Shown piece by piece: positions 9,159 through 38,749 of a stretch of DNA of 64,000 nt. Origin of the DNA: Verrucomicrobiia bacterium (GTDB lineage Bacteria > Verrucomicrobiota > Verrucomicrobiia > Limisphaerales > UBA1100); the NCBI GenBank assembly GCA_014239365.1, contig JAAZZB010000006.1, positions 75,189 through 139,188 of the forward strand. The letters are read 5' to 3'. Under the pieces are notes generated by a model that saw nothing but the letters and a program-made list of their open reading frames with translations, ran no database searches and was not told the origin of the DNA. A program made the position numbers and the translations under genes. The first letter of the stretch is position 1, and each line of letters starts with the position of its first letter.

Positions 9159-10940
9159 TCAAGCCGCCAAGTGAGCGCGGGAGATTTGTTGGGCTTGGGC
9201 GATTTGCTCGGGGGTCATGCAGCGGGCGGTGTGGCGTTTGTTTTTCTCGGCGATTTCCAGGCCGTGCGATGAGGCGCGGTTGAACCACACGTACGCGAGC
9301 ACGTAATCCTCCGGCACGCCGCGTCCGCGCAAATAGCAATCGGCCAAAATCAATTGGGCCTCGGGCACTTCCTGCGCGGCGGCGAGCTGGCACCACTTGG
9401 CCGCTTCGCCGGCATCCGCGTCCACGCCTTCGCCGTGATGATAGAGCGTCGCCAACACGTGCTGCGCCACGGCGTGCCCTTGCTTGGCGGCTTGGCGATA
9501 CCACGTGACGGCTTGATCCAAATTAGCCTCCGTGCCGCGACCGAGGTGCAGCATCACGGCGAGATTATATTGCGCCCGCGCCAAACCTTGATCCGCCGCC
9601 AACTCGTACCAGCGCAAAGCCGAAGTAAAATTCTGTTCCGTGCCGCGTCCCTGTTCGTGGAACGCGCCCAGATTGCACTGGGCGCTGGCGATGCTTTGTT
9701 CGGCCGCGAGCTTGTAATACTTGAGCGCTTTGACGTCATCGGCGGGCACGCCACGTCCGCGTGCGTGCATTGCGCCGAGGTTAAACTGCGCCGCCGCGTG
9801 GCCGGCATCGGCGGCGAGCGTGTACCAATCGGCGGCTTCCGTGAGATTTTCTGGAACGCCATCGCCGCGCTCGAGGCTGACCGCCAGCCGATACTGCGCT
9901 TCATTCACGCCGCCTTCGGCGGCTTTGCGCAGCCACTTCACAGCGGCCGCCGCATCGCGCGGCAGCGCCACGCCGTCATCCAGCGCGCGCCCGAGTAGCC
10001 ATTGCGCCTCGGTGTGATCGGCGGTGGCGGCTTGTTCCAGCCATTGCGCGGCTTCGGGCGAATGCGCTTCGAGTAAGTTACGGCCAAGATTGAATTGCGC
10101 GGGCAAGCAATTTTGTTCCGCCGCGCGGCGATACCATTCCATGGCTTCGCCGGCATCCGCATCCACGCCGATGCCTTCGGCAAGGCAACGACCCAAATTA
10201 TTTTGTGCAGCGGCGTGGCCGACTTCGGCGGCGGCGCGATACCAACGTGTGGTTTCCGTTTTGTCGGCATCCTCTTCAGCCGCCAACAAATCGGCCAAGT
10301 GCGCCTGGGCGGCGGCGTGATTTTTCTCGGCGGCTTTGGTGAGCCATTCCTTGGCGACTTCCAAATCTTTTTCCGCGCCACGCCCTTGCGCGCAGCGAAG
10401 GCCGAGGTTGAATTGCGCGGCGGTGTTGCCTTGCTCGGCGGCTTTGCGGAACCAACCGACGGCTTGGGCTTCATCGGCGTCCACGCCGGTGCCTTCGGAA
10501 AAGCATACGCCCAAATTATTTTGTGCCAACGCGAAGCCTTGCTCGGCGGCTTTCGTTAGCAACGCCGCGCCTTCGGATTCGTTGGCGGACACGCCGTTGC
10601 CGCGCACGAGCCGCCAGCCGAGGATGGCTTGGGCGCGCGCGTAGCCGAGCTCGGCGGCTTTACGATACCACTTGAGCGCGGCTTTGAGATCGGGCGCGCC
10701 GAGCGCATCGCTGGTGTACAGAAGGGCGAGATTATTCATCGCGGGCGGGAAGTCGCGCTTGGCGGCTTTGCGATACCATTTCTCGGCCTCCTTGAGATCG
10801 CCCTCGCCGCCGTCGCCGTCACCATTGGCAAGCTTCACGGCGAGCGTAAATTGCGCTTTGAGCACGCCATCTTTGGCTTGCGAGCGCAATTCTTTCAGTT
10901 CCGCTTTGGCGGATTTTTCTGCCTGTTTGTCTTCGGCCAT
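9159..10940 (-). CDS. Sel1-like repeat protein (about 15 repeats)
   Basis: Recurrent AQxNLG...G.GV..D...A..WY..AA.QG 36-aa units; start trimmed to MAEDKQ. Confidence 0.93.
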   Translation of the reverse strand: MAEDKQAEKSAKAELKELRSQAKDGVLKAQFTLAVKLANGDGDGGEGDLKEAEKWYRKAAKRDFPPAMNNLALLYTSDALGAPDLKAALKWYRKAAELGYARAQAILGWRLVRGNGVSANESEGAALLTKAAEQGFALAQNNLGVCFSEGTGVDADEAQAVGWFRKAAEQGNTAAQFNLGLRCAQGRGAEKDLEVAKEWLTKAAEKNHAAAQAHLADLLAAEEDADKTETTRWYRAAAEVGHAAAQNNLGRCLAEGIGVDADAGEAMEWYRRAAEQNCLPAQFNLGRNLLEAHSPEAAQWLEQAATADHTEAQWLLGRALDDGVALPRDAAAAVKWLRKAAEGGVNEAQYRLAVSLERGDGVPENLTEAADWYTLAADAGHAAAQFNLGAMHARGRGVPADDVKALKYYKLAAEQSIASAQCNLGAFHEQGRGTEQNFTSALRWYELAADQGLARAQYNLAVMLHLGRGTEANLDQAVTWYRQAAKQGHAVAQHVLATLYHHGEGVDADAGEAAKWCQLAAAQEVPEAQLILADCYLRGRGVPEDYVLAYVWFNRASSHGLEIAEKNKRHTARCMTPEQIAQAQQISRAHLAA

Positions 10941-11105
10941 CAGTGCAGCTGGTATTTTTCGCCGCGGCAACAAATGGATTGCACGCGGAAAACGGTCGTT
11001 TTTACCCGTTTTTCACGCGAAAAGCCAGTCATTCTCCTTGGCGAATGTATTTGGAAAAATAGAGCAACACTTGTGCCAAAGTCTGTTTTTTCCTGAAAAA
11101 CCCAC

Positions 11106-11140
11106 AAAAAACCCCGCCGCCCGCCGAAGCGAGGGGGGGG
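11106..11140 (-). terminator. Intrinsic terminator
   Basis: Minus strand CCCCCCCCTCGC-TTCG-GCGGGCGGCGGGG-TTTTTT: a cUUCGg tetraloop with a U-tract after the gene ending at 11178. Confidence 0.65.
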
Positions 11141-11177
11141 AAACAGGCAGGTTGGGTAACCCGTGATTGTCTGTTTT

Positions 11178-11879
11178 CTAATTCTTTTTGCCGCCCTTGC
11201 CGCCACGCTTTTGGCGTTTGAGGCGGGTATCGAACGTTTCCACTTCGCCATCACCATCGACCACTTTGATGATGGCCAAGCCGGTTGGGGTAGTGACAAA
11301 ATCCACGGTGGCATCCTCTTCACCTTCCTCGTCTTTGGCCTTCACCGTGGCGCGCAGACCGCGCTCGGTGGCTTTCCATTTGCCAACGTAGATGGGACCG
11401 CCTTTCAAATCTTCGCAGGGGGTGACGGTGAATGCGCCATCGGGTTTCACTTGCACAGAGAGATGCTCTTCATCGAACCATCCAACGTAGACACCCGCTG
11501 GCCCTTTTTCGGCCAATCGTTTGTTGCGCTTGAATTGGGGCATTCCGAATTCATCCACTTCGCCACCGGGTGAGATCACTTTCACCAGCGCGAGGTCACC
11601 GTTATCCACCGTGAACACGACTGTGCCTTCGTCGCCGGTGGGGTCTTTGAGCTTGGCGGTGAGGGTGTTGCCGTCGCGCTTCCACGTGCCGCGCATTGTG
11701 AACTTGGGGCGCTCGGCGCTGGGCCGGACGATGATGGAGCCATCGGCTTTGAGAATGGCGGTGGCGAGTTCGCCTTCGATTTCGCCTTTGTAAGTGCCGG
11801 CGATGGGCGGTGCTTTTTTGTCCGCACCTAACGCAATGAATGCGATGAGGCTGAACAGAGTGAAGAGTTTTGTTTTCAT
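11178..11879 (-). CDS. Secreted hypothetical protein with two tandem beta-rich repeats
   Basis: Signal peptide MKTKLFTLFSLIAFIALGA; repeats GTYKG..LKADGS..GTWK and GVYVG..VKPDGA..GKWK. Confidence 0.75.
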   Translation of the reverse strand: MKTKLFTLFSLIAFIALGADKKAPPIAGTYKGEIEGELATAILKADGSIIVRPSAERPKFTMRGTWKRDGNTLTAKLKDPTGDEGTVVFTVDNGDLALVKVISPGGEVDEFGMPQFKRNKRLAEKGPAGVYVGWFDEEHLSVQVKPDGAFTVTPCEDLKGGPIYVGKWKATERGLRATVKAKDEEGEEDATVDFVTTPTGLAIIKVVDGDGEVETFDTRLKRQKRGGKGGKKN

Positions 11880-11881
11880 TT

Positions 11882-13264
11882 TTATATCTCCCAGCCTTTG
11901 CGGTAATCTTTGGTGGCAAAGGCGGTGGCTTTTGGGTTTGAGGATTTGAGTTTCTTGGCGTTCCAATCGAAGCCTTCGCCGACGCGCATTGCGATGTTGC
12001 CCAACAGGATGGCTTCGGTGAAGTTGCCGGCGTGGTTGAAATTGGAGAGGGCGAGTTCGGGGTTGTTGGCCTTGATGGCTTCGGCCCACTCGAGTTTCAT
12101 GCCGACATCGCCTTTGTTATTGCGGGCGAGCACGGGGTCGGTTTTTTTGAATTCCGGCGCTGCTTTGCCGCCGGGCACGGGGAGGAGTTTCCACGCGGCG
12201 CCGTAGTCGTTGGGAGAATATAGAATACCTTTGGTGCCGACGATGAGCGAGCCGCTTCCGGGGGGATTGTTGCCGTGGAAGAGCTCGGCGGGCGGCAGTT
12301 TCTTTTTGCCGTTTTGTTTGCCTTCGTACCAAAAGAAATCCACTGCGCCGCGGCTCCCACGAACGCCTCGGCCACGGATGGCGGGGAATTTTAGTTTGAT
12401 CACGGCCCACGCGGGGAAGGTCTCGGGGTTGATGGGGCCAACGGTGATGGGCTCGACCCACGTCGGTTGCGTGAGACTGCAACCCATATAAGCGAGGTTG
12501 GCAGTGTGACAGGCCATGTCGCCCATTGCGCCGGTGCCGTAGTCCCACCAACCGCGCCATTTGAAAGGATGATAACCGGCGTTGTACGGGCGCATCTTGG
12601 CGGGGCCAATGAATGAATCCCAATCGACGGTGTCGGGCACGGCTTGCTCGGGTAAAGCCTTGGTGATGCCCGGCGCTTGCGGCCACACGGGGCGGTTGGT
12701 CCACACGTGACATTCCTTGATCTCGCCGATGGCGCCCGCCCACAATGCCTCGACGCCTTCGCGCATGCCGTTCATCGAGGTGCCTTGATTTCCCATTTGG
12801 GTGCACACTTTATTTTTCTTCGCCTCGAGGCGCATTTGGCGCGCTTCCCAAACGGTGTGGGTCAGCGGTTTTTGGCAGTAAACATGAATGCCCTGACGCA
12901 TCGCGCGGATGGCGGCGGGGGCGTGCGTGTGATCGGGGGTGGACACGGTGCACGCGTCGATCTCCTTGCCCATCTTGTCGAGCATTTCGCGGAAGTCGGT
13001 AAACTTTTTTGCCTTGGGAAAATTCTTGGCCGCGCCCGCGCCTCGGCGGAAGTCCACATCGCAAAGCGCAACCACCTCTCCGATTTTACCCGCGCCGCTA
13101 ATATCGCTGCCGCCCTTGCCGCCCACGCCGATGCCGGCGACGGCGAGGCGTTCATTGGCGCCGAAAACGCGGGAGGGGAGAAAGTTCACCGCGATGGCTG
13201 AGGCCGCGCCAGCCTTGAGGATGTCGCGTCGGGTGTAGGATTTGATCAAAGTTTTGTGTGACAT
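11882..13264 (-). CDS. Tat-exported Gfo/Idh/MocA oxidoreductase
   Basis: TRRDILK Tat motif, IGVGGKG, STPDHTH, YCQKPLTH, GDMACH. Confidence 0.93.
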   Translation of the reverse strand: MSHKTLIKSYTRRDILKAGAASAIAVNFLPSRVFGANERLAVAGIGVGGKGGSDISGAGKIGEVVALCDVDFRRGAGAAKNFPKAKKFTDFREMLDKMGKEIDACTVSTPDHTHAPAAIRAMRQGIHVYCQKPLTHTVWEARQMRLEAKKNKVCTQMGNQGTSMNGMREGVEALWAGAIGEIKECHVWTNRPVWPQAPGITKALPEQAVPDTVDWDSFIGPAKMRPYNAGYHPFKWRGWWDYGTGAMGDMACHTANLAYMGCSLTQPTWVEPITVGPINPETFPAWAVIKLKFPAIRGRGVRGSRGAVDFFWYEGKQNGKKKLPPAELFHGNNPPGSGSLIVGTKGILYSPNDYGAAWKLLPVPGGKAAPEFKKTDPVLARNNKGDVGMKLEWAEAIKANNPELALSNFNHAGNFTEAILLGNIAMRVGEGFDWNAKKLKSSNPKATAFATKDYRKGWEI

Positions 13265-13324
13265 GAGAACGTGTGTGTCAGCCGAGTATCGACTGTGCAC
13301 GAGGATGCGCAAGGGTTTTTTTGT

Positions 13325-13390
13325 TGAACCGCCAAGCCCCCAAGACGCCAAGTTTATCTTTTCCTGGCGTCTTTGTGACTTAGCGGTTCA
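13325..13390. repeat. REP-like palindromic element (AACCGCCAAG family), copy 1
   Basis: TGAACCGCCAAG..AAGACGCCAAG ... CTGGCGTCTT..CTTAGCGGTTCA; related copy at 14783. Confidence 0.75.
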
Positions 13391-13396
13391 CCCGAT

Positions 13397-14737
13397 TTAC
13401 CAACCCCAGCCTTTGCGGTATTCGCGGCGGACAAATTGGTTGGCGTTGGCGCTTTTGGCGGTGCCTTTTTTGGGGTCCCAGTCGAGCGGTTCGTTGGCGC
13501 GGATAGCGAGATTGCCGAGCAACACGACTTCGGTAAACGGACCGGCAATTTCGAAGCGGCTCAATGGAGCGTGGCCTTTGCCGGCGGCGGCATCGAGCCA
13601 TTCGGTGTAATTGCTCTTCACACGCGGGAGGGTGCGCGGCGTGTTTTGCTCGATGTGTTTTACCTCGTCGGCGGCGCGACCGGTGACTTTCCAGCTATTG
13701 CGGAATCGATTGAAAAAAAGTTTCCCCTTCGTGCCCACGAGCATTGAGCCGTAGCTGCCTTGGCGACCGCCTTTCGCCATATTCACGCCGCCGGTAGTTT
13801 CCTGCGAGGGCGCGTTTTGCACGCCGTCTTTTTTTCCATCGTACCAAACCAGCTTCACCGGCGGACGCTTCCCGCGCGCGGGGAATTGATAATCGATGAC
13901 GGCCCATTTGGGCGGGCTTTCTTTCGTGCCGCCGCCGTGCCGCGCCTCCACGTGCGTGGGCACGCCGAGCTCGAGACTCCACCACGCCATATCCATTAAG
14001 TGACACGCCATATCGCCCAACGCGCCCGTGCCGAAATCCCACCAACCGCGCCACGCGAAGGGCACGTAGCCTTTGCCGTATTCGCGGAAGGGCGCGGGGC
14101 CGAGCCACAAATCCCAATCCACATTCGCGGGCACCGGCTCCTTGGGCGGACGCGCCGCCATGCCTTGCGGCCAAATGGGGCGGTTCGTCCACACGTGCGC
14201 TTCGGTGACCTCGCCGATGATGCCCGCGCGCACAAGCTCCACCACACGCCGGATGGGTTCGCCCGCGTGCGCTTGGTTGCCCATTTGCGTGACCACCTTG
14301 CTGGCGGCGGCTTGCTTCACCAACTCGCGCGCTTCCCACACATTATGCGTGAGTGGTTTTTGGGTGTAACAATGCTTGCCCATTTGCATCGCCTTCATCG
14401 TGGCCACGGCGTGGGTGTGGTCGGGCGTGGAGATGGTGCAGGCGTCGATGCTCTTACCCATTTGATCGAGCATCACGCGGAAATCAGAAAACACTTTTGC
14501 CTTCGGATATTTTTTGAACGACCCCGCGCCGCGCCGCGGATCCACATCGCAGAGCGCCACGATATCCGCGCCCGCCGCAGCGGAGCCATTGATATCCGCC
14601 GTGCCTTTGCCGCCCGCGCCAATCCCGGCGACGGCGAGGCGCGCGTTGGCGCCAAAGACGCGTGAAGGAAAAAAGTTAAACGCAAACGCGGAAGCCGCGC
14701 CGGCTTGGATAGCTTGTCGACGTGTGATGCGTGGCAT
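13397..14737 (-). CDS. Tat-exported Gfo/Idh/MocA oxidoreductase (paralogue)
   Basis: TRRQAIQ Tat motif, IGAGGKG, STPDHTH, YTQKPLTH, GDMACH. Confidence 0.93.
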   Translation of the reverse strand: MPRITRRQAIQAGAASAFAFNFFPSRVFGANARLAVAGIGAGGKGTADINGSAAAGADIVALCDVDPRRGAGSFKKYPKAKVFSDFRVMLDQMGKSIDACTISTPDHTHAVATMKAMQMGKHCYTQKPLTHNVWEARELVKQAAASKVVTQMGNQAHAGEPIRRVVELVRAGIIGEVTEAHVWTNRPIWPQGMAARPPKEPVPANVDWDLWLGPAPFREYGKGYVPFAWRGWWDFGTGALGDMACHLMDMAWWSLELGVPTHVEARHGGGTKESPPKWAVIDYQFPARGKRPPVKLVWYDGKKDGVQNAPSQETTGGVNMAKGGRQGSYGSMLVGTKGKLFFNRFRNSWKVTGRAADEVKHIEQNTPRTLPRVKSNYTEWLDAAAGKGHAPLSRFEIAGPFTEVVLLGNLAIRANEPLDWDPKKGTAKSANANQFVRREYRKGWGW

Positions 14738-14782
14738 GGGAGAAGGCTGCGGAAGTTGCCCGCGATTGTAAAGATTTTTTTG

Positions 14783-14830
14783 AACCGCCAAGGCCAAAAA
14801 TGAACTTGGCGTCTTTGTGCCTTGGCGGTT
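14783..14830. repeat. REP-like palindromic element (AACCGCCAAG family), copy 2
   Basis: AACCGCCAAGGC ... GCCTTGGCGGTT inverted repeat. Confidence 0.75.
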
Positions 14831-30447: not shown

Positions 30448-30999
30448 ATGAACGAGCCGAACGCCGGAGAACAACATCGGATTCACGTGCAACAATTGTT
30501 CGTGAAACATCAGGGCGTGCTCAAGGGGTACGTGCTAGGGTTGGTGCCGGAATTTGCTTCGGCGGAGGATGTGCTGCAGGAAGTTTTTTTGACGGTGACG
30601 GCCAAGGCGGATCAGTTTGAAGAAGGCAGCAACTTCGTCGCGTGGGCGCGCAGCATTGCGCGGTTTAAGGTGATGGAACACTGGCGCGCGCGACGGGGCG
30701 AACCGCAGGCGCTCAGCAACGAAGTGCTCGAATCGCTGGCGGCTTCCGCGCCGGATGAGGTGCCGGAAGAACAAAGTGAACGCGAGCGGGCGCTCAAAGG
30801 CTGCCTCGCACAACTCTCGCCCACGGTGCGCGAGTTGGTGGAGCTAAGATACGCGCAGGAACATAAGCCCGCCGAGATTGCGCGCATCAAAAACTGGACG
30901 CCCGAGGCGGTGTACGTCGCCCTCTCCCGCGCGCGCGCGGCATTGCGGGTGTGTTTGCAAAAACAGTTGGCGCTATCCGGCAAGGGGGAAGGGATTTGA
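30448..30999 (+). CDS. ECF sigma factor (PVC type)
   Basis: AEDVLQEVF, FEEGSNFVAWARSIARFKV, VYVALSRARAALRVCL. Confidence 0.93.
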   Translation: MNEPNAGEQHRIHVQQLFVKHQGVLKGYVLGLVPEFASAEDVLQEVFLTVTAKADQFEEGSNFVAWARSIARFKVMEHWRARRGEPQALSNEVLESLAASAPDEVPEEQSERERALKGCLAQLSPTVRELVELRYAQEHKPAEIARIKNWTPEAVYVALSRARAALRVCLQKQLALSGKGEGI

Positions 31000-31176
31000 T
31001 TTGATCGCGGCTAAAATTTTTGGCGAAGGGAATGGTTTTCCCGCGCCACAACAAATGTCCCTTGGGACTGGTTGGGTACAGACAGCACGGCGGTTTCCTG
31101 CCGCGTTTGGATCGGGGCTCCGCCCGGTGCAGCGCGGTGGGAGCCGTTCGTGCAACCCATTAAATCTGGAGACTGA

Positions 31177-32616
31177 ATGATGGAAGATAAACGACTCGCC
31201 CGTCTATTGGACGGGCACTTTGACGGCACACTAAAATCCGCCGACCGGCTGGAACTCGAAACGCTGCTGCGCGAAAGCGAGCAAGCCCGCGCCGAGTACT
31301 GGGCGCACGCCCAATTGCACAGCGATCTGCACGGCGCGCTGCGTCTGCCCGCTGCTGCGCCGGAGCCGCGCCCCACGCCAATGCAGCGTTGGCGGCATCT
31401 TATGCCCCGCCCCGCCCGTCGCATTCTTGCCCACGCCGCCGTGGTGGCCGCGTGCCTCGCCTTCGTTTGGTGGGCCCGCCAGCCGACTGCACCAGCACAA
31501 TCGGAGCCGGTTTATGTCGCCGTCATCGGCCATCTCAATTCAGTTAAGAGCCTGCAAAATTTCCAACCCGGCCAAGCCATTGCCACCGGTGAACTGGAAA
31601 TAAAAAATGGCCTGTTGGAATTGAAATTTTTCAACGCCGCCACCGTCACGCTGCAAGGCCCCGCGCGACTGGAGCTGCGCTCAATGGATCGGCTGGTGCT
31701 GCACCACGGTCGCCTCGCCGCGCGTGTGCCGGAAACGGCAATCGGGTTCACTGTCGAAACACCCGCCGGCAAAATCATCGACCTCGGCACCGAGTTTGGC
31801 GTCCACGTCCGCGACGATGGCACGATGGAAACGCACGTGTTCGAAGGCGAAGTGGATGTGGCCTTGCCGCGTCAGTCCACGCACCGACTCACCGCCGGCA
31901 CCGCACTCAATGTTTCCACCGAAGGCACCGCGCAGGAAGCCCCCGCCAATCCCGCGCAATTCCCGCGCTCCGTAACGCAATTGGATCAACTCCTGCTCAA
32001 TCCCGGTTTCGAGCCGGGCACGCCTGTTTATAGTTATGGCATCCCGCACGCGCCCGGCCGATGGAGCGGCGATCTCGCCGTCATCACCGGCCCCGAGATG
32101 GGCATCCAACCCAAGACCGGCAAAGGAATGCTGCGCTTCGATCGCTCCATCCATTTGCTCACCGAAGAGGACACCGAAGAATCCCACGCCGCCAGCGAGC
32201 AATGGCAAATCATTGACCTCCGCCCCCTCAAAGCCAACGCGCCGCGCGCCGCCTTCACCGCCACCGCCCGCGCATACTTCAATCGCATCGACGCCGGAGC
32301 CTCCACCGACACCCGTTTTGAAATCGGCCTCTACGCCTACGCCGGCACCCCCACCGATGCCCATGCGCATTGGAAAAATCACAGCCGCCGCCTTGCCGGC
32401 CATTTCAGCGGCATCAACACCGATGCCAACCCCGCCACCTGGCAGCCCGCCGAAGCGCGCCTCACCATCCCCGCCGAAGCCGATTTCATTCTACTGCGCC
32501 TCTACGCCGTGGAAGATATCGCCGATGAACACCCCCAACAAACCGAATTCGCCGGCCACTACGCCGACGCCGTCCAACTCACCCTCCAACGCGCCCCCCT
32601 CCCCGCCACGCGCTAA
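31177..32616 (+). CDS. FecR-domain anti-sigma factor
   Basis: N-terminal LLDGHFDG..LE.LL helix, TM segment, GFTVETPAGKIIDLGTEFGV...HVFEGEV. Confidence 0.9.
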   Translation: MMEDKRLARLLDGHFDGTLKSADRLELETLLRESEQARAEYWAHAQLHSDLHGALRLPAAAPEPRPTPMQRWRHLMPRPARRILAHAAVVAACLAFVWWARQPTAPAQSEPVYVAVIGHLNSVKSLQNFQPGQAIATGELEIKNGLLELKFFNAATVTLQGPARLELRSMDRLVLHHGRLAARVPETAIGFTVETPAGKIIDLGTEFGVHVRDDGTMETHVFEGEVDVALPRQSTHRLTAGTALNVSTEGTAQEAPANPAQFPRSVTQLDQLLLNPGFEPGTPVYSYGIPHAPGRWSGDLAVITGPEMGIQPKTGKGMLRFDRSIHLLTEEDTEESHAASEQWQIIDLRPLKANAPRAAFTATARAYFNRIDAGASTDTRFEIGLYAYAGTPTDAHAHWKNHSRRLAGHFSGINTDANPATWQPAEARLTIPAEADFILLRLYAVEDIADEHPQQTEFAGHYADAVQLTLQRAPLPATR

Positions 32617-33990: not shown

Positions 33991-34368
33991 CGGAATTCCT
34001 CTCCACTCTCCGCGCAAAATCACGCGCTGTCAATGTGAGGGAAAAGGTGGGACAAAGAAGGTCTGAGAGCGCAATTTATCCCACTCGCCGCACTTCAAAA
34101 TGCCGATGCTTGCGCTTGGCTTTGGTGACTTCGAAGGCGAGGCTGGCGTCGAACAAGGCCGCGATGCGGGCGGCAGGCAACGCACGCGGAACGGTCTTTC
34201 TTTTTCATCACGCCGCAGAGTATCGGAGGCAAATAGACTTATCGTTCTTTTGCTCCTCACACCGCTCGCAATCCACAGTTACCTTACCAACTAAAACAAG
34301 ATTTACCGTTGGAAATTCCTCTGTTTTACCCTTGTCCAAAATGGCTTGCGGCGGCATAAATTTCAGCC

Positions 34369-34821
34369 GTGAAACCATTTCGACTTACTTGGATTTTGAT
34401 GGCGGCGGTAATTTGCAACGCAACGGCGGACGACATTCGTGGCGAGGTGGAGTTCAGCATCAACGCGAGGGCAAAGACGACCAAAGCGGGGACGCCCTTT
34501 GCATTAGAGCTGGAATACAACATCGCCCCCGGCTGGCACATCGGTCCGCAAACATCGAAAGTCACCATCCCCACTGAGCTGGAGTGGACGCTGCCCGAGG
34601 GGGTGAAGCTGGTGAAAGTGGAATGGCCGGAGCTGAATTATTTTGGCAACCCGCCCGGCTTTCAAGGCAAAGTGATTCTCCACGCCAAACTGCAAGCGGC
34701 GAAGGACTTAAAGCCCGGCGCGAAATTAACCATCGGCGTCCGTTCATCGTGGCAAGTGTGCAAAGGCATTTGTAAACTGGGCGAGGCGACGAAGTTGGTG
34801 AAGGTGACGGTTGCAAAATAA
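34369..34821 (+). CDS. Exported DsbD N-terminal-domain (thiol-disulfide) protein
   Basis: Signal peptide; IAPGWHI, PTELEWTLPEG, EWPE, WQVCKGIC (CxxxC). Confidence 0.85.
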   Translation: MKPFRLTWILMAAVICNATADDIRGEVEFSINARAKTTKAGTPFALELEYNIAPGWHIGPQTSKVTIPTELEWTLPEGVKLVKVEWPELNYFGNPPGFQGKVILHAKLQAAKDLKPGAKLTIGVRSSWQVCKGICKLGEATKLVKVTVAK

Positions 34822-34837
34822 AACACATCAAAAATTT

Positions 34838-36043
34838 ATGAAAACACAAACTCTCTTCAAAACCTTCGCAACGCTCACCGCCCTCGGCACGGCCGCTGCC
34901 GCGTACGCGGTGGATTTCGCACCGCCGCTAATGATGCAGGCCAACGGCCAACCCATCAGCACCGAATCCCCCGGCTACGCCGCGCCGTGTTGGGCGGATG
35001 TGGATGGCGACGGCAAAAAAGATTTGCTCGTCGGCCAGTTTGCCGGCGGAAAAATTCAGGTGTTCAAAAACACCGGTGACAACAAACTCGCCGCCGGCCA
35101 ATGGCTGCAGGCCGACGGCAAAACCGCTAAAGTCCCCGGCGTATGGTGATGCACCAGCTCGACTCCACAGTTTGTGGATCTCAATAACGACGGACACCCC
35201 GACATTCTTTCCGGTTCTTACTCGTGGAATGAGCGGGGAATGGCCGGCATTTTCCAAGTGCTCTGGGGCCAACCCGGCGGTGGTTTCAAGCAACCCACCC
35301 CACTGCAAGGCACCGACGGCAAGCCGCTGATTATTCTGCCAGACGATAAAAAAACCCCCACCCTCGCCCGCATCTGCACCCGGCCCACCGCTGCGGATTG
35401 GGATGGCGACGGCCACATCGACCTCGTGGTCGGCAACTTCGGCGGCAGCTTTTATCTCTTCAAAGGCGAAGGCAAAGGCAAGTTCGCGCCCAAAGCCACA
35501 AAACTCACTTCCGGCGGCAAAGCCCTTGAAGTCCGACACCACAGTGACCCCTTCGTCATCGACTGGGATGCCGATGGCGACCTCGATCTCCTTAGCGGAG
35601 CATCCGGCGGCGGCGTGCACTGGGCCGAAAACACCGCCGGCAAAGGCAAAGCCCCGACGCTCAAACCGTTCAAAGCCATCATCGCCTCCGGCCCCAAACG
35701 CGAATACGGCGCGATGCTTAAAGAAGCCGACCTCGACGGCCCCGGCAGCGACACCCGCATTTGGGTGGACGACATCAACGGCGACGGCAAGCTCGACCTC
35801 CTTGTTGGCGACTCCGTGCAACTCGTTTCCCCAGCCAAAGGCTTGACCGAAAAAGAGTACCACAAACAAAAAGCCGCGTGGAAAGTTGAGAAAGACAAAT
35901 GCATCGCAATACTCAGCAATCGGAAATCGAAAAAAGCTGAGAAACGCGCCGCCGGCAAAAAGATGAACAATCTACACAACCAACGCAAAGATTTCGAAAT
36001 CACCAAAAGCACCGGCTACGTGTGGCTCTATTTGCAGAAGTAA
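34838..36043 (+). CDS. Secreted FG-GAP/VCBS repeat protein, candidate selenoprotein (in-frame TGA at 35147-35149, codon 104)
   Basis: ORFs 34811-35149 and 35174-36043 are in frame: VPGVW-TGA-CTSSTPQFVDLNNDGHPDIL; five DxxGDG-type repeats; SECIS-like hairpin follows. Confidence 0.8.
35161..35180 (+). promoter_or_regulatory. Candidate bacterial SECIS element
   Basis: GA(C bulge)TCCACA-GTT-TGTGGA-TC, starting 11 nt after the TGA; loop begins GU. Confidence 0.65.
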
Positions 36044-36094
36044 GGTAGGGACGCGCTGCCGCGCGTCCAGGACACGCGGCAGCGTGTCCCTACC
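36044..36094. repeat. GTAG-type REP doublet
   Basis: GGTAGGGACGCGCTGCCGCGCGTCC-A-GGACACGCGGCAGCGTGTCCCTACC between convergent genes. Confidence 0.85.
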
Positions 36095-36104
36095 ATCACC
36101 AACT

Positions 36105-36620
36105 TCACTTCTTCAGCTTAAACGAATCAAAAAACTTTTCCGCGCTTTTGAAAGCTATGTCGTTCGCCTTGGCGACGAGGGTGAGTTGATACACTCGCGT
36201 GCCCACCACATACAAACGCGTGTGCACGGAGTAGTCGCCGGGCGGCGCGGCGGTTAATTTAAATTCACGGCCCTCGTGTTCCCCCAACTTAATGGCTTTA
36301 GGAATAGCGGGCTTGCCTTTCACATTTTTCGCCATGCCCTTTGCCATCAAATCCAGTAACTTTCCCGGCGGCGTGGTCTTCAAAAATGCCTCCGGATAAT
36401 CGTGCGTGGCCACGCGCCACACCGTGTCCTTGTTCGGCGTGTGCGAGTGCGCAGTAATTTTCACCACGCCAAATGGATAACGATTCTGCCCGCTTTTCAC
36501 CGTTACTTTTCCCGGCATAGAAATGGCAAATTTTCCATCGGGCGATTTATACTCGGGCCAATCAGCGGCGTGCAAACAAGGGGCCAACATGAATGCAAAA
36601 ATCAGTACGCGTATTTTCAT
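36105..36620 (-). CDS. Secreted hypothetical protein (PsbP/DUF1795-like PVC family)
   Basis: Signal peptide MKIRVLIFAFMLAPCLHA; W.EYKSPDGKFAISMPG...GHEGREF-like segment...RVYQL...KFFDSFKL. Confidence 0.7.
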   Translation of the reverse strand: MKIRVLIFAFMLAPCLHAADWPEYKSPDGKFAISMPGKVTVKSGQNRYPFGVVKITAHSHTPNKDTVWRVATHDYPEAFLKTTPPGKLLDLMAKGMAKNVKGKPAIPKAIKLGEHEGREFKLTAAPPGDYSVHTRLYVVGTRVYQLTLVAKANDIAFKSAEKFFDSFKLKK

Positions 36621-38749
36621 TTTTTGAGAATGGGTTGCGGCCGCAGATGACGGTGGAGGTACAACCAGCGGAGGCTGCTTGAATGGCTGATGAGGCCGTG
36701 TTTGCTGCGGGGGTAAATCATCATATCGAATTGCTTGCCTGCGCGTTGGAGGGTGTCGGCGAGTTGCCACGTGTTGGCGGGGTGCACGTTGTCGTCGATG
36801 AGGCCGTGCAGGAGGAGGAGTTTGCCTTTCAGGTTTTTCGCGTGGGTGAGGCAGGAGCCAGCGCGATAGCCGTCCGGGTTTTCCTTGGGGGTGCGCATGT
36901 AGCGTTCGGTGTAAATGGTGTCGTAGTTTTTCCAATCGGTCACCGGCGCGCCCGCCACGCCGACGTGAAAAACATCCGGATAACGCAGCAACGCCAGCGC
37001 GCTCATATAGCCGCCGTAGGAATGGCCGGCGATGCCCACGCGCGTGGCGTCCACGTACGCGCGCTTGGCGAGGTGGCGCACGCCGGCGGCTTGATCGTCG
37101 AGATCCACCGTGCCGAGTTTGAGGTAGCCCGCCGTTTCAAACGCCTTGCCGCGCGCGGCAGTGCCGCGATTGGCAATGGTCGCCACGAGAAAACCAAACT
37201 CGCAATATGGATTCGCCGCCGAATAACGATTACTCACCCCGCGCGAACTCGGCCCGCCATACACGCTCACCAACAGCGGGTACTTGCGCTTCGGATCAAA
37301 ATTCGCGGGCTTGTACAGCGTGCCGTAAATAATCGTTTTGCCGTCCGTCGCTTTACAGGCAAACAACTCCGGCTTGGCGAGCCCCAACTCGGCCTCCATT
37401 TTTTTGTCGGCATCCGGTCGCTCTGTCAGCACGACAACTTCGTTTCCTTTCGCATCAAACAACGCCATCACCGGCGGCACGCCCACGGCTTCGCGTCGCG
37501 CCACGAACCATTTGTGATCGGGCGAAATGTTGAACGTACTATAATAAAGGGCATTGCGCGTGAGCCGCGTGTGGCCGGTGCCATCGGGCCGCACGCGATG
37601 CAAGTGATCGTTGAGAGGATTCCCGCCACTGCGCGCGGTGAAATAAATCCAGCCGGATGTTTCATCCACCTTCACCAACGCGGTGGCCGGCTTACCCTTC
37701 AGATTTGAAAGCGGCCCCAGCCGCGAACCGTTGAGATGGCGCAGCTCGTACTGCTTCCAGCCGGTGCGTTCGGTTTCCCAAATGAAACGTTTTTTATCAT
37801 CAAGGAAACGCATGAGCGACAGATTATTTTGCCAAGCCGGTTGTTGCTCGCGCACCACCACGCGCGTACGACCGGTGGCAGGATCGGCGGCCACAATCTC
37901 CAATGTGTCCTGTCGGCGATTGGTACGATTGAACAGCAACGCCGATCCATCGGGCGCGAAGCGCGCGTTGAAAATATATTGCGTGGGGTCGCCGCCCACA
38001 TTCACGCGCGTGGTGCGGCGCGTTTGGCGGTCGTAAATGAGAAGACCCGCGACCGGATTGGCATCGCCGGATTTCGGATAACGCACCGTTTGCACGTCGG
38101 TGTAGTTGGCGGTGTTGCCGGTGGTGAGGTGGTAATCGCGCAGATGCCGCTCGTCCATTTCATAAAACGCCAGCCGCCGACTATCCGGCGACCACCACAT
38201 CGCGGAGCTTTGCCGCAGTTCCTCGCCATAAACCCAACACCCCGTGCCGTATCGAAATTTTTCTGTGCCGCCCTTAGTGACGGAAATCACTTGCGTAGCG
38301 TTGGCGTCCACTGCGGGCGCGCCTTTTTTTGGCGGCGCCGTTTCGATCACCACATTAAAATCCCGATACCGCGCCATCCACTTGCCATCGGGCGAAAGCG
38401 CCTGCGTCGCCTGCCGCGCCCGCCCCACACGCGGCGACCGACGCGGCGGCGGTCCGGATGGCGGCTTGGGTTTCGATGGCTTGCCAAGATCTTTGATAGA
38501 AAAATCGCCGAGACTCAAACGGAACTGATTTGTCCCGCGCACAAAAGTCATCGACCGACCATCGTCCGCCCATTCAACACGGCTCACGCGGCCAGCGCCA
38601 CTCAACATCGCTGTAGCCTCGCGGACACGTTGAAAGCTCTCAAACCCAGGCAAATGCGCCAGCGGATGGGGCGGCGGTTTTTTCTCCGCCGATTCCGCCG
38701 CGCAGCAGCTGACTGCGAGGCACGAAAAAATTTTCAGCCAACGATTCAT
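36617..38749 (-). CDS. S9B dipeptidyl peptidase IV family
   Basis: WVYGEE, WWSPD, VYGGP, GHSYGG nucleophile, DDNVH, YPRSKH. Confidence 0.93.
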   Translation of the reverse strand: MNRWLKIFSCLAVSCCAAESAEKKPPPHPLAHLPGFESFQRVREATAMLSGAGRVSRVEWADDGRSMTFVRGTNQFRLSLGDFSIKDLGKPSKPKPPSGPPPRRSPRVGRARQATQALSPDGKWMARYRDFNVVIETAPPKKGAPAVDANATQVISVTKGGTEKFRYGTGCWVYGEELRQSSAMWWSPDSRRLAFYEMDERHLRDYHLTTGNTANYTDVQTVRYPKSGDANPVAGLLIYDRQTRRTTRVNVGGDPTQYIFNARFAPDGSALLFNRTNRRQDTLEIVAADPATGRTRVVVREQQPAWQNNLSLMRFLDDKKRFIWETERTGWKQYELRHLNGSRLGPLSNLKGKPATALVKVDETSGWIYFTARSGGNPLNDHLHRVRPDGTGHTRLTRNALYYSTFNISPDHKWFVARREAVGVPPVMALFDAKGNEVVVLTERPDADKKMEAELGLAKPELFACKATDGKTIIYGTLYKPANFDPKRKYPLLVSVYGGPSSRGVSNRYSAANPYCEFGFLVATIANRGTAARGKAFETAGYLKLGTVDLDDQAAGVRHLAKRAYVDATRVGIAGHSYGGYMSALALLRYPDVFHVGVAGAPVTDWKNYDTIYTERYMRTPKENPDGYRAGSCLTHAKNLKGKLLLLHGLIDDNVHPANTWQLADTLQRAGKQFDMMIYPRSKHGLISHSSSLRWLYLHRHLRPQPILKK

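Follow-up and report, generated by a model that had tools for sequence, protein, structure and literature searches.

A probable exported beta-propeller selenoprotein with a vicinal selenocysteine-cysteine pair encoded in a Verrucomicrobiia genome

Here, we describe a gene for a predicted FG-GAP/VCBS beta-propeller protein that lies within a 64,000-nt stretch of a Verrucomicrobiia bacterium assembly (G000:C72:75189-139188; hereafter the window, to the whole of which all window coordinates refer), and which very probably encodes a genuine selenoprotein belonging to a new family. Taken as a whole, and with confidence that is hardly lower, the locus is best explained as encoding an exported propeller of 401 residues in which one UGA codon is read as selenocysteine (Sec) under the direction of a selenocysteine insertion sequence (SECIS) element. 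Translation from ATG 34838 to the stop codon at 36041-36043 with TGA read as Sec (U) gives a single 401-codon frame, and the only TGA within it is codon 104, in the context KVPGVW-U-CTSSTPQFVDLNNDG; the predicted read-through peptide across Sec104 is VPGVW-U-CTSSTPQFVDLNNDGHPDILSGSYSWNER. Translation table 11 splits this frame into two open reading frames (ORFs) of the same phase, 34811..35149 and 35174..36043, the second of which begins with a GTG inside the DLNNDG loop and therefore lacks a signal peptide. A preliminary description of this DNA had already regarded the two ORFs as one frame broken by a lone TGA, with a W-U-C sequence at the break and no signal peptide of its own in the downstream part, and our translation agrees with it on each of these points. 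It had also considered that the reads might show a sense codon at this place; however, a 1,084-nt contig obtained from another sample of the same study covers positions 34408-35491 with zero differences and carries the same TGA, which is therefore not an assembly slip.

Comparison with homologues revealed that the TGA is conserved far beyond the close relatives of the host. A DNA-level scan of one genome per species yielded 441 relatives, the best 80 of which (mostly from Planctomycetota, some from Verrucomicrobiota and a few from bins labelled otherwise) were examined at the column aligned with Sec104. A TGA followed by a Cys codon was found in 68 of them and a Cys-Cys pair in six (L071, L072, L080, L081, L083 and L091), while the column was unalignable or not comparable in another six (L098, L105, L106, L107, L109 and L110). 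All nine loci from the window's own relatives carry the TGA, including a second paralogue in the host genome, and Cys directly follows the TGA in each of the 76 Sec forms, the family motif being U-C-[TIV]-x-x-x-[PS]-Q-x-[VA]-D-x-[ND]-x-D-G. Moreover, the protein is conserved on both sides of this column: P50, G59, L63, V65, G66, Q67, G71 and P100, all upstream of the TGA, are invariant in 38 orthologues, as are many columns downstream of it. Hence, the TGA or Cys flanked by conserved sequence, on which the preliminary description had made its proposal depend, was found in 68 and six of the 80 loci, respectively.

The same picture emerges from protein databases, in which 115 of the 120 best matches are C-terminal fragments of 267-294 aa covering 67-72% of the query (including one annotated as 'VCBS repeat-containing protein'); public gene calls therefore begin just past the TGA, and the gene is split by standard annotation, as had been predicted. 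Among the five full-length matches, four (P0003, P0004, P0005 and P0008) have W-C-C. The sole orthologue among 40 relatives is that of G004, which shares 68% identity with the window protein and retains the TGA. When the Cys form P0004 was compared with 400 sampled genomes of the window's phylum, only the host genome was matched at E <= 1e-40, and the orthologue is therefore patchy in this sample; additionally, a metagenome scan for Cys-form orthologues with the back-translated pattern W-C-C-T-S-S-T-P-Q/H gave 51 matches, none of which was a family member. A paralogous group of seven loci, which includes C72:146223 of the host, reads VPST-U-CSTFCPQFVD. The host paralogue itself (G000:C72:146223; L030:816-2156) is a Sec-form FG-GAP gene of 447 codons situated ~7 kb past the end of the window, and its orthologues L021 and L026-L028 bear C-terminal PG_binding_1 and DsbD_N domains. 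Sec forms occur in every clade of a quick maximum-likelihood tree (82 rows), and the Cys forms are nested among them; four Sec/Cys state changes are needed, only one of which is forced by starred branches. The in-frame TGA of a more distant FG-GAP match (G036, locus L018) was considered as a further Sec site and rejected, as it is an ordinary gene end.

Downstream of the TGA, sequence reading and folding agree on the hairpin GA(C)TCCACA-GTT-TGTGGA-TC, which begins 11 nt past the TGA, exactly as previously noted, and whose 6-bp upper stem (UCCACA/UGUGGA) starts at 14 nt. With the T of TGA numbered 1, the lower pairs G15-C34 and A16-U33 border a bulged C, the core stem 18-22 (UCCAC) pairs with 28-32 (GUGGA), and an optional A23-U27 pair precedes the loop at 24-26. 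The apical loop GUU widens to AGUUY in sequences without the A23-U27 pair, and its G is located 20 nt past the UGA. The five core pairs are complete in 68 of 76 Sec forms versus none of the six Cys forms (the Cys-form control consists of these six distant loci only), and the loop reads GTT in 70 of the 76 Sec forms. Across 74 aligned sequences, 87.9% of the cells pair, compared with 21.5-55.7% when the partners are slid by 1-3 columns, and none of 500 shuffles reached the observed covariation score or the share of paired cells. Pair 21-29 is AU in 64 sequences, GC in four and GU in two; in the GC cases (L077, L084, L095 and L096) a synonymous change of CCA to CCG is coupled to a change of GTG to GCG, which replaces Val by Ala.

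The strongest evidence for the SECIS element comes from the constraint on synonymous sites, for which the codon usage of the same 74 genes (33,348 codons) served as the baseline. The codon preceding Pro ends in T, whatever amino acid it encodes (T, G, S, C or A), in 69 of 74 sequences, although only 9.4 would be expected. Pro itself is written as CCA in 56 of 64 cases (baseline 8.4%) and Ser, where it replaces Pro, as TCA in nine of ten (11.5%); Val is GTG in all 70 cases (33.9%) and Gln is CAG in 71 of 72 (72.6%). At the same hairpin sites the Cys forms have GTC, CCC, CCG and mixed codon endings. The published model of the bacterial SECIS (bSECIS) comprises a loop of 3-9 nt whose first two positions include a G, an upper stem of 4-16 bp, a distance of 16-37 nt between the UGA and the loop, and a minimum free energy of -7.5 kcal/mol or lower (PMC13188914). 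The element described here fits these values, with a stem of 5-6 bp plus two further pairs, a GUU or AGUUY loop, a spacing of 20 nt and -8.8 kcal/mol.

The genes selA, selB, selC and selD, whose absence would have spoken against the preliminary description, are all present in the host genome and are clustered on a single contig, C40, between 9.4 and 14.8 kb (9414-14825). The tRNA-SeC(tca) gene (9414-9509) ends 52 nt ahead of the selD match (9562-10476, 427.8 bits), which is followed by selA (10797-11864, 379.7 bits) and by a SelB wing domain (14685-14825, 63.5 bits). The host possesses a second, classical selenoprotein gene, which encodes an FdhA-like molybdopterin oxidoreductase (G000:C9:40085-41533; L163) with an in-frame TGA in CSRAUHAPT, and its hairpin GGUCGCC-GGUCU-GGCGGCC likewise starts 11 nt past the UGA. 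TGA closes 205 of the 659 stop-to-stop frames of at least 500 codons and is therefore an ordinary stop in this genome. Across genomes, SelA accompanies the TGA form in seven of seven relatives, but it was also found in 27 of the 41 genomes searched, which makes this weak evidence. Four of four additional Sec-form genomes gave strong SelA matches, and of six Cys-form genomes three gave strong matches and three weak or partial ones (112, 75 and 22 bits).

Given this, we propose that the UGA at 35147 would be decoded as Sec by the SelA, SelB, SelD and tRNA-Sec of the host, and that decoding would be directed by the SECIS hairpin lying over the T-P-Q-F-V-D codons, 14-32 nt past the UGA. Decoding would thus follow the standard bacterial mechanism, and it is the predicted fold and location of the protein that are unusual for a selenoprotein. 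Several observations weigh against this interpretation. One core pair is missing in eight of the 76 Sec forms, and the covariation is thin, as two of the six pairs are invariant and double changes occur in only one; on the covariation check proposed in the preliminary description the hairpin nevertheless gave a favourable result, with a strong synonymous constraint and one compensatory pair. Furthermore, the stem overlaps a conserved peptide, so that coding accounts for part of the nucleotide conservation. The energy of the 71-nt fold is unremarkable (z = -0.34 versus shuffles), and the hairpin alone, at -7.1 kcal/mol, just misses the limit of -7.5, the value of -8.8 being that of the 36-nt element with the lower stem; it is the comparison of homologues, not the energy, that marks the hairpin as more than chance. 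A scan of positions 34000-37000 against Rfam at E up to 10 returned five chance-level matches and no SECIS family. The Cys forms L071, L083 and L091 sit in genomes with a strong SelA match, and the full-length database protein P0010 (388 aa) has Glu at the Sec column (PGVM-E-CASATPQFVE). Possibly, P0010 is a variant that lost the vicinal pair.

Two other ways of reading the TGA have to be set against Sec insertion. If it were a real stop, the locus would give rise to a 103-residue exported peptide and a 289-residue cytoplasmic protein started at GTG 35174, or would be a pseudogene; this is what table 11, with its two ORFs, and public annotation, in which 115 of the 120 best matches present the C-terminal piece as a protein of its own, would suggest. 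We consider this very improbable, since 68 of 80 distant loci share the TGA at this column, since the halves on either side of it are both conserved and in frame, and since full-length Cys homologues exist. The split would also cut a propeller blade that is modelled confidently as part of a single domain, the downstream piece would begin inside a DxDxDG loop, and the constrained synonymous sites point out an RNA element at precisely the place where a SECIS should lie. Even less credence is due to the idea that one of the standard amino acids (Trp, Cys, Arg or Gly), and not Sec, is inserted at the UGA through a reassigned code or near-cognate suppression. Reassignment of UGA to Trp is reported for some Verrucomicrobiota (PMC13462651), yet TGA ends 205 of 659 long frames in the host genome, only one TGA occurs in the gene, the homologues have Cys and not Trp at the Sec column, and a SECIS-like element is present together with the full Sec machinery.

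The protein itself was expected to adopt the FG-GAP propeller fold, and both profile searches and modelling bear this out. Pfam matches to FG-GAP_3 (PF13517, 97.8 bits) and FG-GAP (PF01839, 50.2 bits) are well above the respective cut-offs of 26.9 and 22.1. The AlphaFold model built on 38 sequences (predicted local distance difference test, pLDDT, 90.8; predicted template modelling score, pTM, 0.88) consists of a propeller followed by a helical hairpin (residues 338-385) and closing strands (387-398), and pLDDT falls below 50 at residues 1-8 and 18-22. The best Foldseek matches in the PDB are FG-GAP propellers, all at probability 1.00, namely the Psathyrella lectin PVL (E 1.5e-8), CRTAC1, the TcB propeller and integrin alpha, with TM-scores of only ~0.34. 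Five DxDxDG motifs are conserved (residues 54-62, 114-122, 187-195, 242-250 and 312-320), and their loops would be expected to bind Ca2+. The N-terminal sequence MKTQTLFKTFATLTALGTAAAAYA/VDF resembles a Sec-type signal peptide, and the protein is accordingly predicted to be exported. In the model, Sec104 and Cys105 are placed in the loop 94-110, ahead of the strand 111-113 and the DLNNDGHPD loop, and would thus form a vicinal pair on the long loop leading up to the second Ca-type DxDxDG blade. Across 82 members Cys105 is universal, while Cys180 occurs in 54 and Cys51 in 30; since Cys105 alone is universal among the cysteines, the vicinal pair is the only constant candidate active site. The coordinates of the gene and its features are collected in Table 1.

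Table 1. Features of the selenoprotein locus in the window, with the evidence for each.
Feature	Position	Strand	Evidence
Probable selenoprotein gene: FG-GAP/VCBS beta-propeller, C-terminal helical hairpin and closing strands	34838..36043	+	Translation, Pfam, AlphaFold, Foldseek
Predicted Sec-type signal peptide, residues 1-24 (...AAAAYA / VDF)	34838..34909	+	Inference from sequence
In-frame TGA, Sec104 codon	35147..35149	+	TGA at the aligned column in relatives
Cys105 codon TGC, vicinal partner of Sec104	35150..35152	+	Cys after TGA in 76/76 Sec forms
SECIS-like hairpin	35161..35180	+	Folding, pair conservation, synonymous constraint
Apical loop GUU	35170..35172	+	GTT in 70/76 Sec forms; published loop pattern and spacing
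Stand-alone DsbD N-terminal (DsbD-alpha-like) domain, 150 aa, predicted exported	34369..34821	+	Pfam PF11412
Perfect 20-bp GC-rich inverted repeat directly 3' of the stop codon	36044..36094	+	RNAfold -50 kcal/mol

The genomic context offers one recurrent functional clue. The product of the gene directly upstream matches DsbD_N (PF11412) with 37.8 bits against a cut-off of 25, and its stop codon lies 16 nt ahead of the selenoprotein start codon. The Cys pair of this domain, C131 and C135 (WQVCKGIC), constitutes the only invariant columns in 15 related domains. An iterative hidden Markov model search of 89 loci, each with 1.5-kb flanks, found DsbD_N adjacent to the propeller gene or fused to it in 16 of them. 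The domain is encoded adjacent and upstream in the window and in G004, is fused C-terminally in L021, L026, L027, L028, L067 and L075 as well as in the Cys forms L072, L081, L083 and L091, is fused N-terminally in L079 and L087, and is found in a downstream frame in L071 and divergently encoded in L034. Pfam confirmed DsbD_N in four of the six fusion proteins tested (L021, L075, L067 and L087). The protein of L021 bears a peptidoglycan-binding domain too, which is consistent with a periplasmic location. The most elaborate arrangement is that of L067:1390-4185, a single frame comprising a U-C propeller, DsbD_N and a TlpA-like thioredoxin domain, the last of which contains a second in-frame TGA (L067:3865-3867) in DFWGDW-U-GPC, that is, a UxxC motif; this frame is probably a double selenoprotein of ~930 residues. 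In the planctomycete genome that holds L067 (G450), nine of 20 Redoxin-family matches contain one in-frame TGA each, an indication that the thioredoxin-fold selenoproteome of this organism is large.

The DsbD_N adjacency and fusions, along with the thioredoxin-DsbD-alpha-propeller chain of L067, point to a periplasmic Sec-Cys redox centre. We postulate that the Sec104-Cys105 pair may cycle between the selenolate/thiol and selenenylsulfide states in the periplasm, and that the DsbD-alpha-like protein encoded 16 nt upstream would re-reduce it. We lean, by a small measure, towards such a redox relay. Two findings weigh on the other side: 73 of the 89 loci are without a DsbD_N domain inside their 1.5-kb flanks, and Pfam finds no DsbD_N in the Cys-form fusions L081 and L072. 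The main functional rival to the relay is metal binding, in which the Sec-Cys pair would be mainly a soft metal or metalloid site (Hg, Cu, As, Se) on the propeller face and not a catalytic redox centre; on this view the protein would serve binding, scavenging or detoxification in the periplasm. In general, FG-GAP propellers act as binding modules and not as enzymes, the Foldseek matches being lectins, integrins and CRTAC1, and several selenoproteins with a vicinal CU or UC are metal-related, such as the CopZ-like GxUC protein, HgcA, the MerB-like SaoL and MbdU (PMC13188914, Table 1). Nevertheless, the recurrent adjacency or fusion of DsbD_N and the UxxC thioredoxin domain of L067 are typical of thiol-disulfide electron relays, and no metal-resistance genes were found among the neighbours scanned, so that we regard a metal site as rather unlikely, though it deserves to be kept in mind. 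As for the redox relay, the chances appear even that the window protein is the founding member of a large family of extracytoplasmic beta-propeller selenoenzymes, which would use the vicinal Sec-Cys pair as active site and act as the terminal client of a DsbD-like electron relay; it is just as finely balanced whether some members unite the whole relay (thioredoxin UxxC, DsbD-alpha and propeller U-C) in one double-selenoprotein chain.

The other neighbours (DinB, an extracytoplasmic function (ECF) sigma factor with a FecR-like protein, DPP-IV, a sulfatase and a ThuA/cytochrome c protein) give no functional clue. The ECF sigma factor (Sigma70_r2/r4_2) and the FecR-domain protein that follows it occupy window positions 30448-32616, ~2 kb upstream of the operon. 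The inverted repeat that follows the selenoprotein stop codon probably marks the end of a two-gene transcription unit; it may act as a terminator, with a T-run absent. Weak microRNA-like Rfam matches at 36037-36106 correspond to this repeat. On the minus strand, at 36105-36935, lies an ORF of 276 residues with a Pro/Arg-rich N-terminal part, which overlaps the start of the DPP-IV frame and has an uncertain start of its own; it matched no Pfam family.

To our knowledge, almost every bacterial selenoprotein described so far resides in the cytoplasm, and the majority adopt thioredoxin-like or metal-cofactor folds. A vicinal redox centre is known from mammalian thioredoxin reductase, which carries Cys and Sec in a C-terminal G-C-U-G. 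The window protein resembles this enzyme in having Sec and Cys side by side, so that an eight-membered selenenylsulfide ring could arise between the two and electrons could be shuttled, but differs in that the order is U-C, the pair resides in an internal propeller loop rather than in a flexible C-terminal tail, and the protein is bacterial and predicted to be extracytoplasmic. In the DsbD/ScsB pathways, DsbD-alpha passes electrons to DsbC, DsbG, CcmG and envelope peroxiredoxins. Similarly, in the family described here the presumed client is encoded beside a DsbD_N domain that retains a conserved Cys pair, or is fused to it, and the thioredoxin-like domain of L067 echoes the gamma-to-alpha order of DsbD; unlike in those pathways, the DsbD_N protein of the window stands alone, with no membrane domain in its gene, and the presumed client is a propeller and not a thioredoxin fold. 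With the fdhF/FdhA paradigm the window gene shares the in-frame UGA, a hairpin whose small apical loop, ~20 nt downstream, contains G-U, the existence of Sec and Cys homologue pairs and the predicted decoding by SelA, SelB, SelD and tRNA-Sec, and the FdhA-like gene of the host itself (CSRAUHAPT) has a comparable hairpin. It departs from this paradigm in that it encodes a beta-propeller instead of a molybdopterin enzyme or a thioredoxin fold, which is predicted to be exported and has a vicinal U-C, and in that its SECIS is embedded in a conserved T-P-Q-F-V-D peptide.

In its Pfam matches (PF13517 and PF01839, well above the cut-offs) and its five DxDxDG loops, the protein resembles known FG-GAP/VCBS propellers, from which it is set apart by its U-C loop of 16 residues ahead of blade 2 and by its link to DsbD_N; no known FG-GAP/VCBS propeller was found reported as a selenoprotein in our literature searches or in the catalogue of PMC13188914. 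The vicinal-motif selenoproteins listed in that catalogue are the CopZ-like 2Fe-2S protein with GxUC, and HgcA, SaoC, SaoL, MbdU and KCU-star with CU (PMC13188914). These families have Sec directly beside Cys as well, but their folds are unrelated, and their NCBIfam models miss the window protein and six other members. The 2026 review lists 119 prokaryotic selenoprotein families (PMC13188914), and neither its Table 1 nor its text contains an FG-GAP, VCBS or propeller family, in keeping with the earlier claim that the fold lies outside the classical selenoprotein families. Likewise, neither the window protein nor any of six other family members reached the cut-off of a model in NCBIfam release 20.0. 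The family was not found in the literature on selenoproteins with FG-GAP, VCBS, beta-propeller, Planctomycetota or Verrucomicrobia, subscription journals being outside the scope of this search. The main texts of PMC12013277 (deep-Sep) and PMC4807772 contain no FG-GAP/VCBS protein, whereas the supplementary tables S2 and S9, which lie outside those main texts, could list a candidate; Table S9 of PMC4807772 is one of planctomycete selenoprotein candidates. Judged by all computational criteria, the window gene qualifies as a genuine selenoprotein gene. It represents a large family that was not found in the 2026 catalogue, in NCBIfam or in the literature searched, and which routine annotation cuts in two.

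The window protein would be the first beta-propeller selenoprotein, and one predicted to be exported. Planctomycetota and Verrucomicrobiota commonly carry members of the family, among which Sec forms greatly outnumber Cys forms in our comparisons (68 TGA among the best 80 of 441 relatives). Since most of its public records are cut at the TGA, counts of the selenoproteomes of Planctomycetota and Verrucomicrobiota are too low, and gene calls are wrong in many metagenome-assembled genomes. The SECIS written into the T-P-Q-F-V-D codons provides a simple signature for finding further members, while the recurrent link to DsbD_N and thioredoxin could be tested as a lead to a new selenium-dependent redox activity in the periplasm. 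It is an evenly poised question whether the family may rank among the commonest ways in which Planctomycetota and marine Verrucomicrobiota use selenium.

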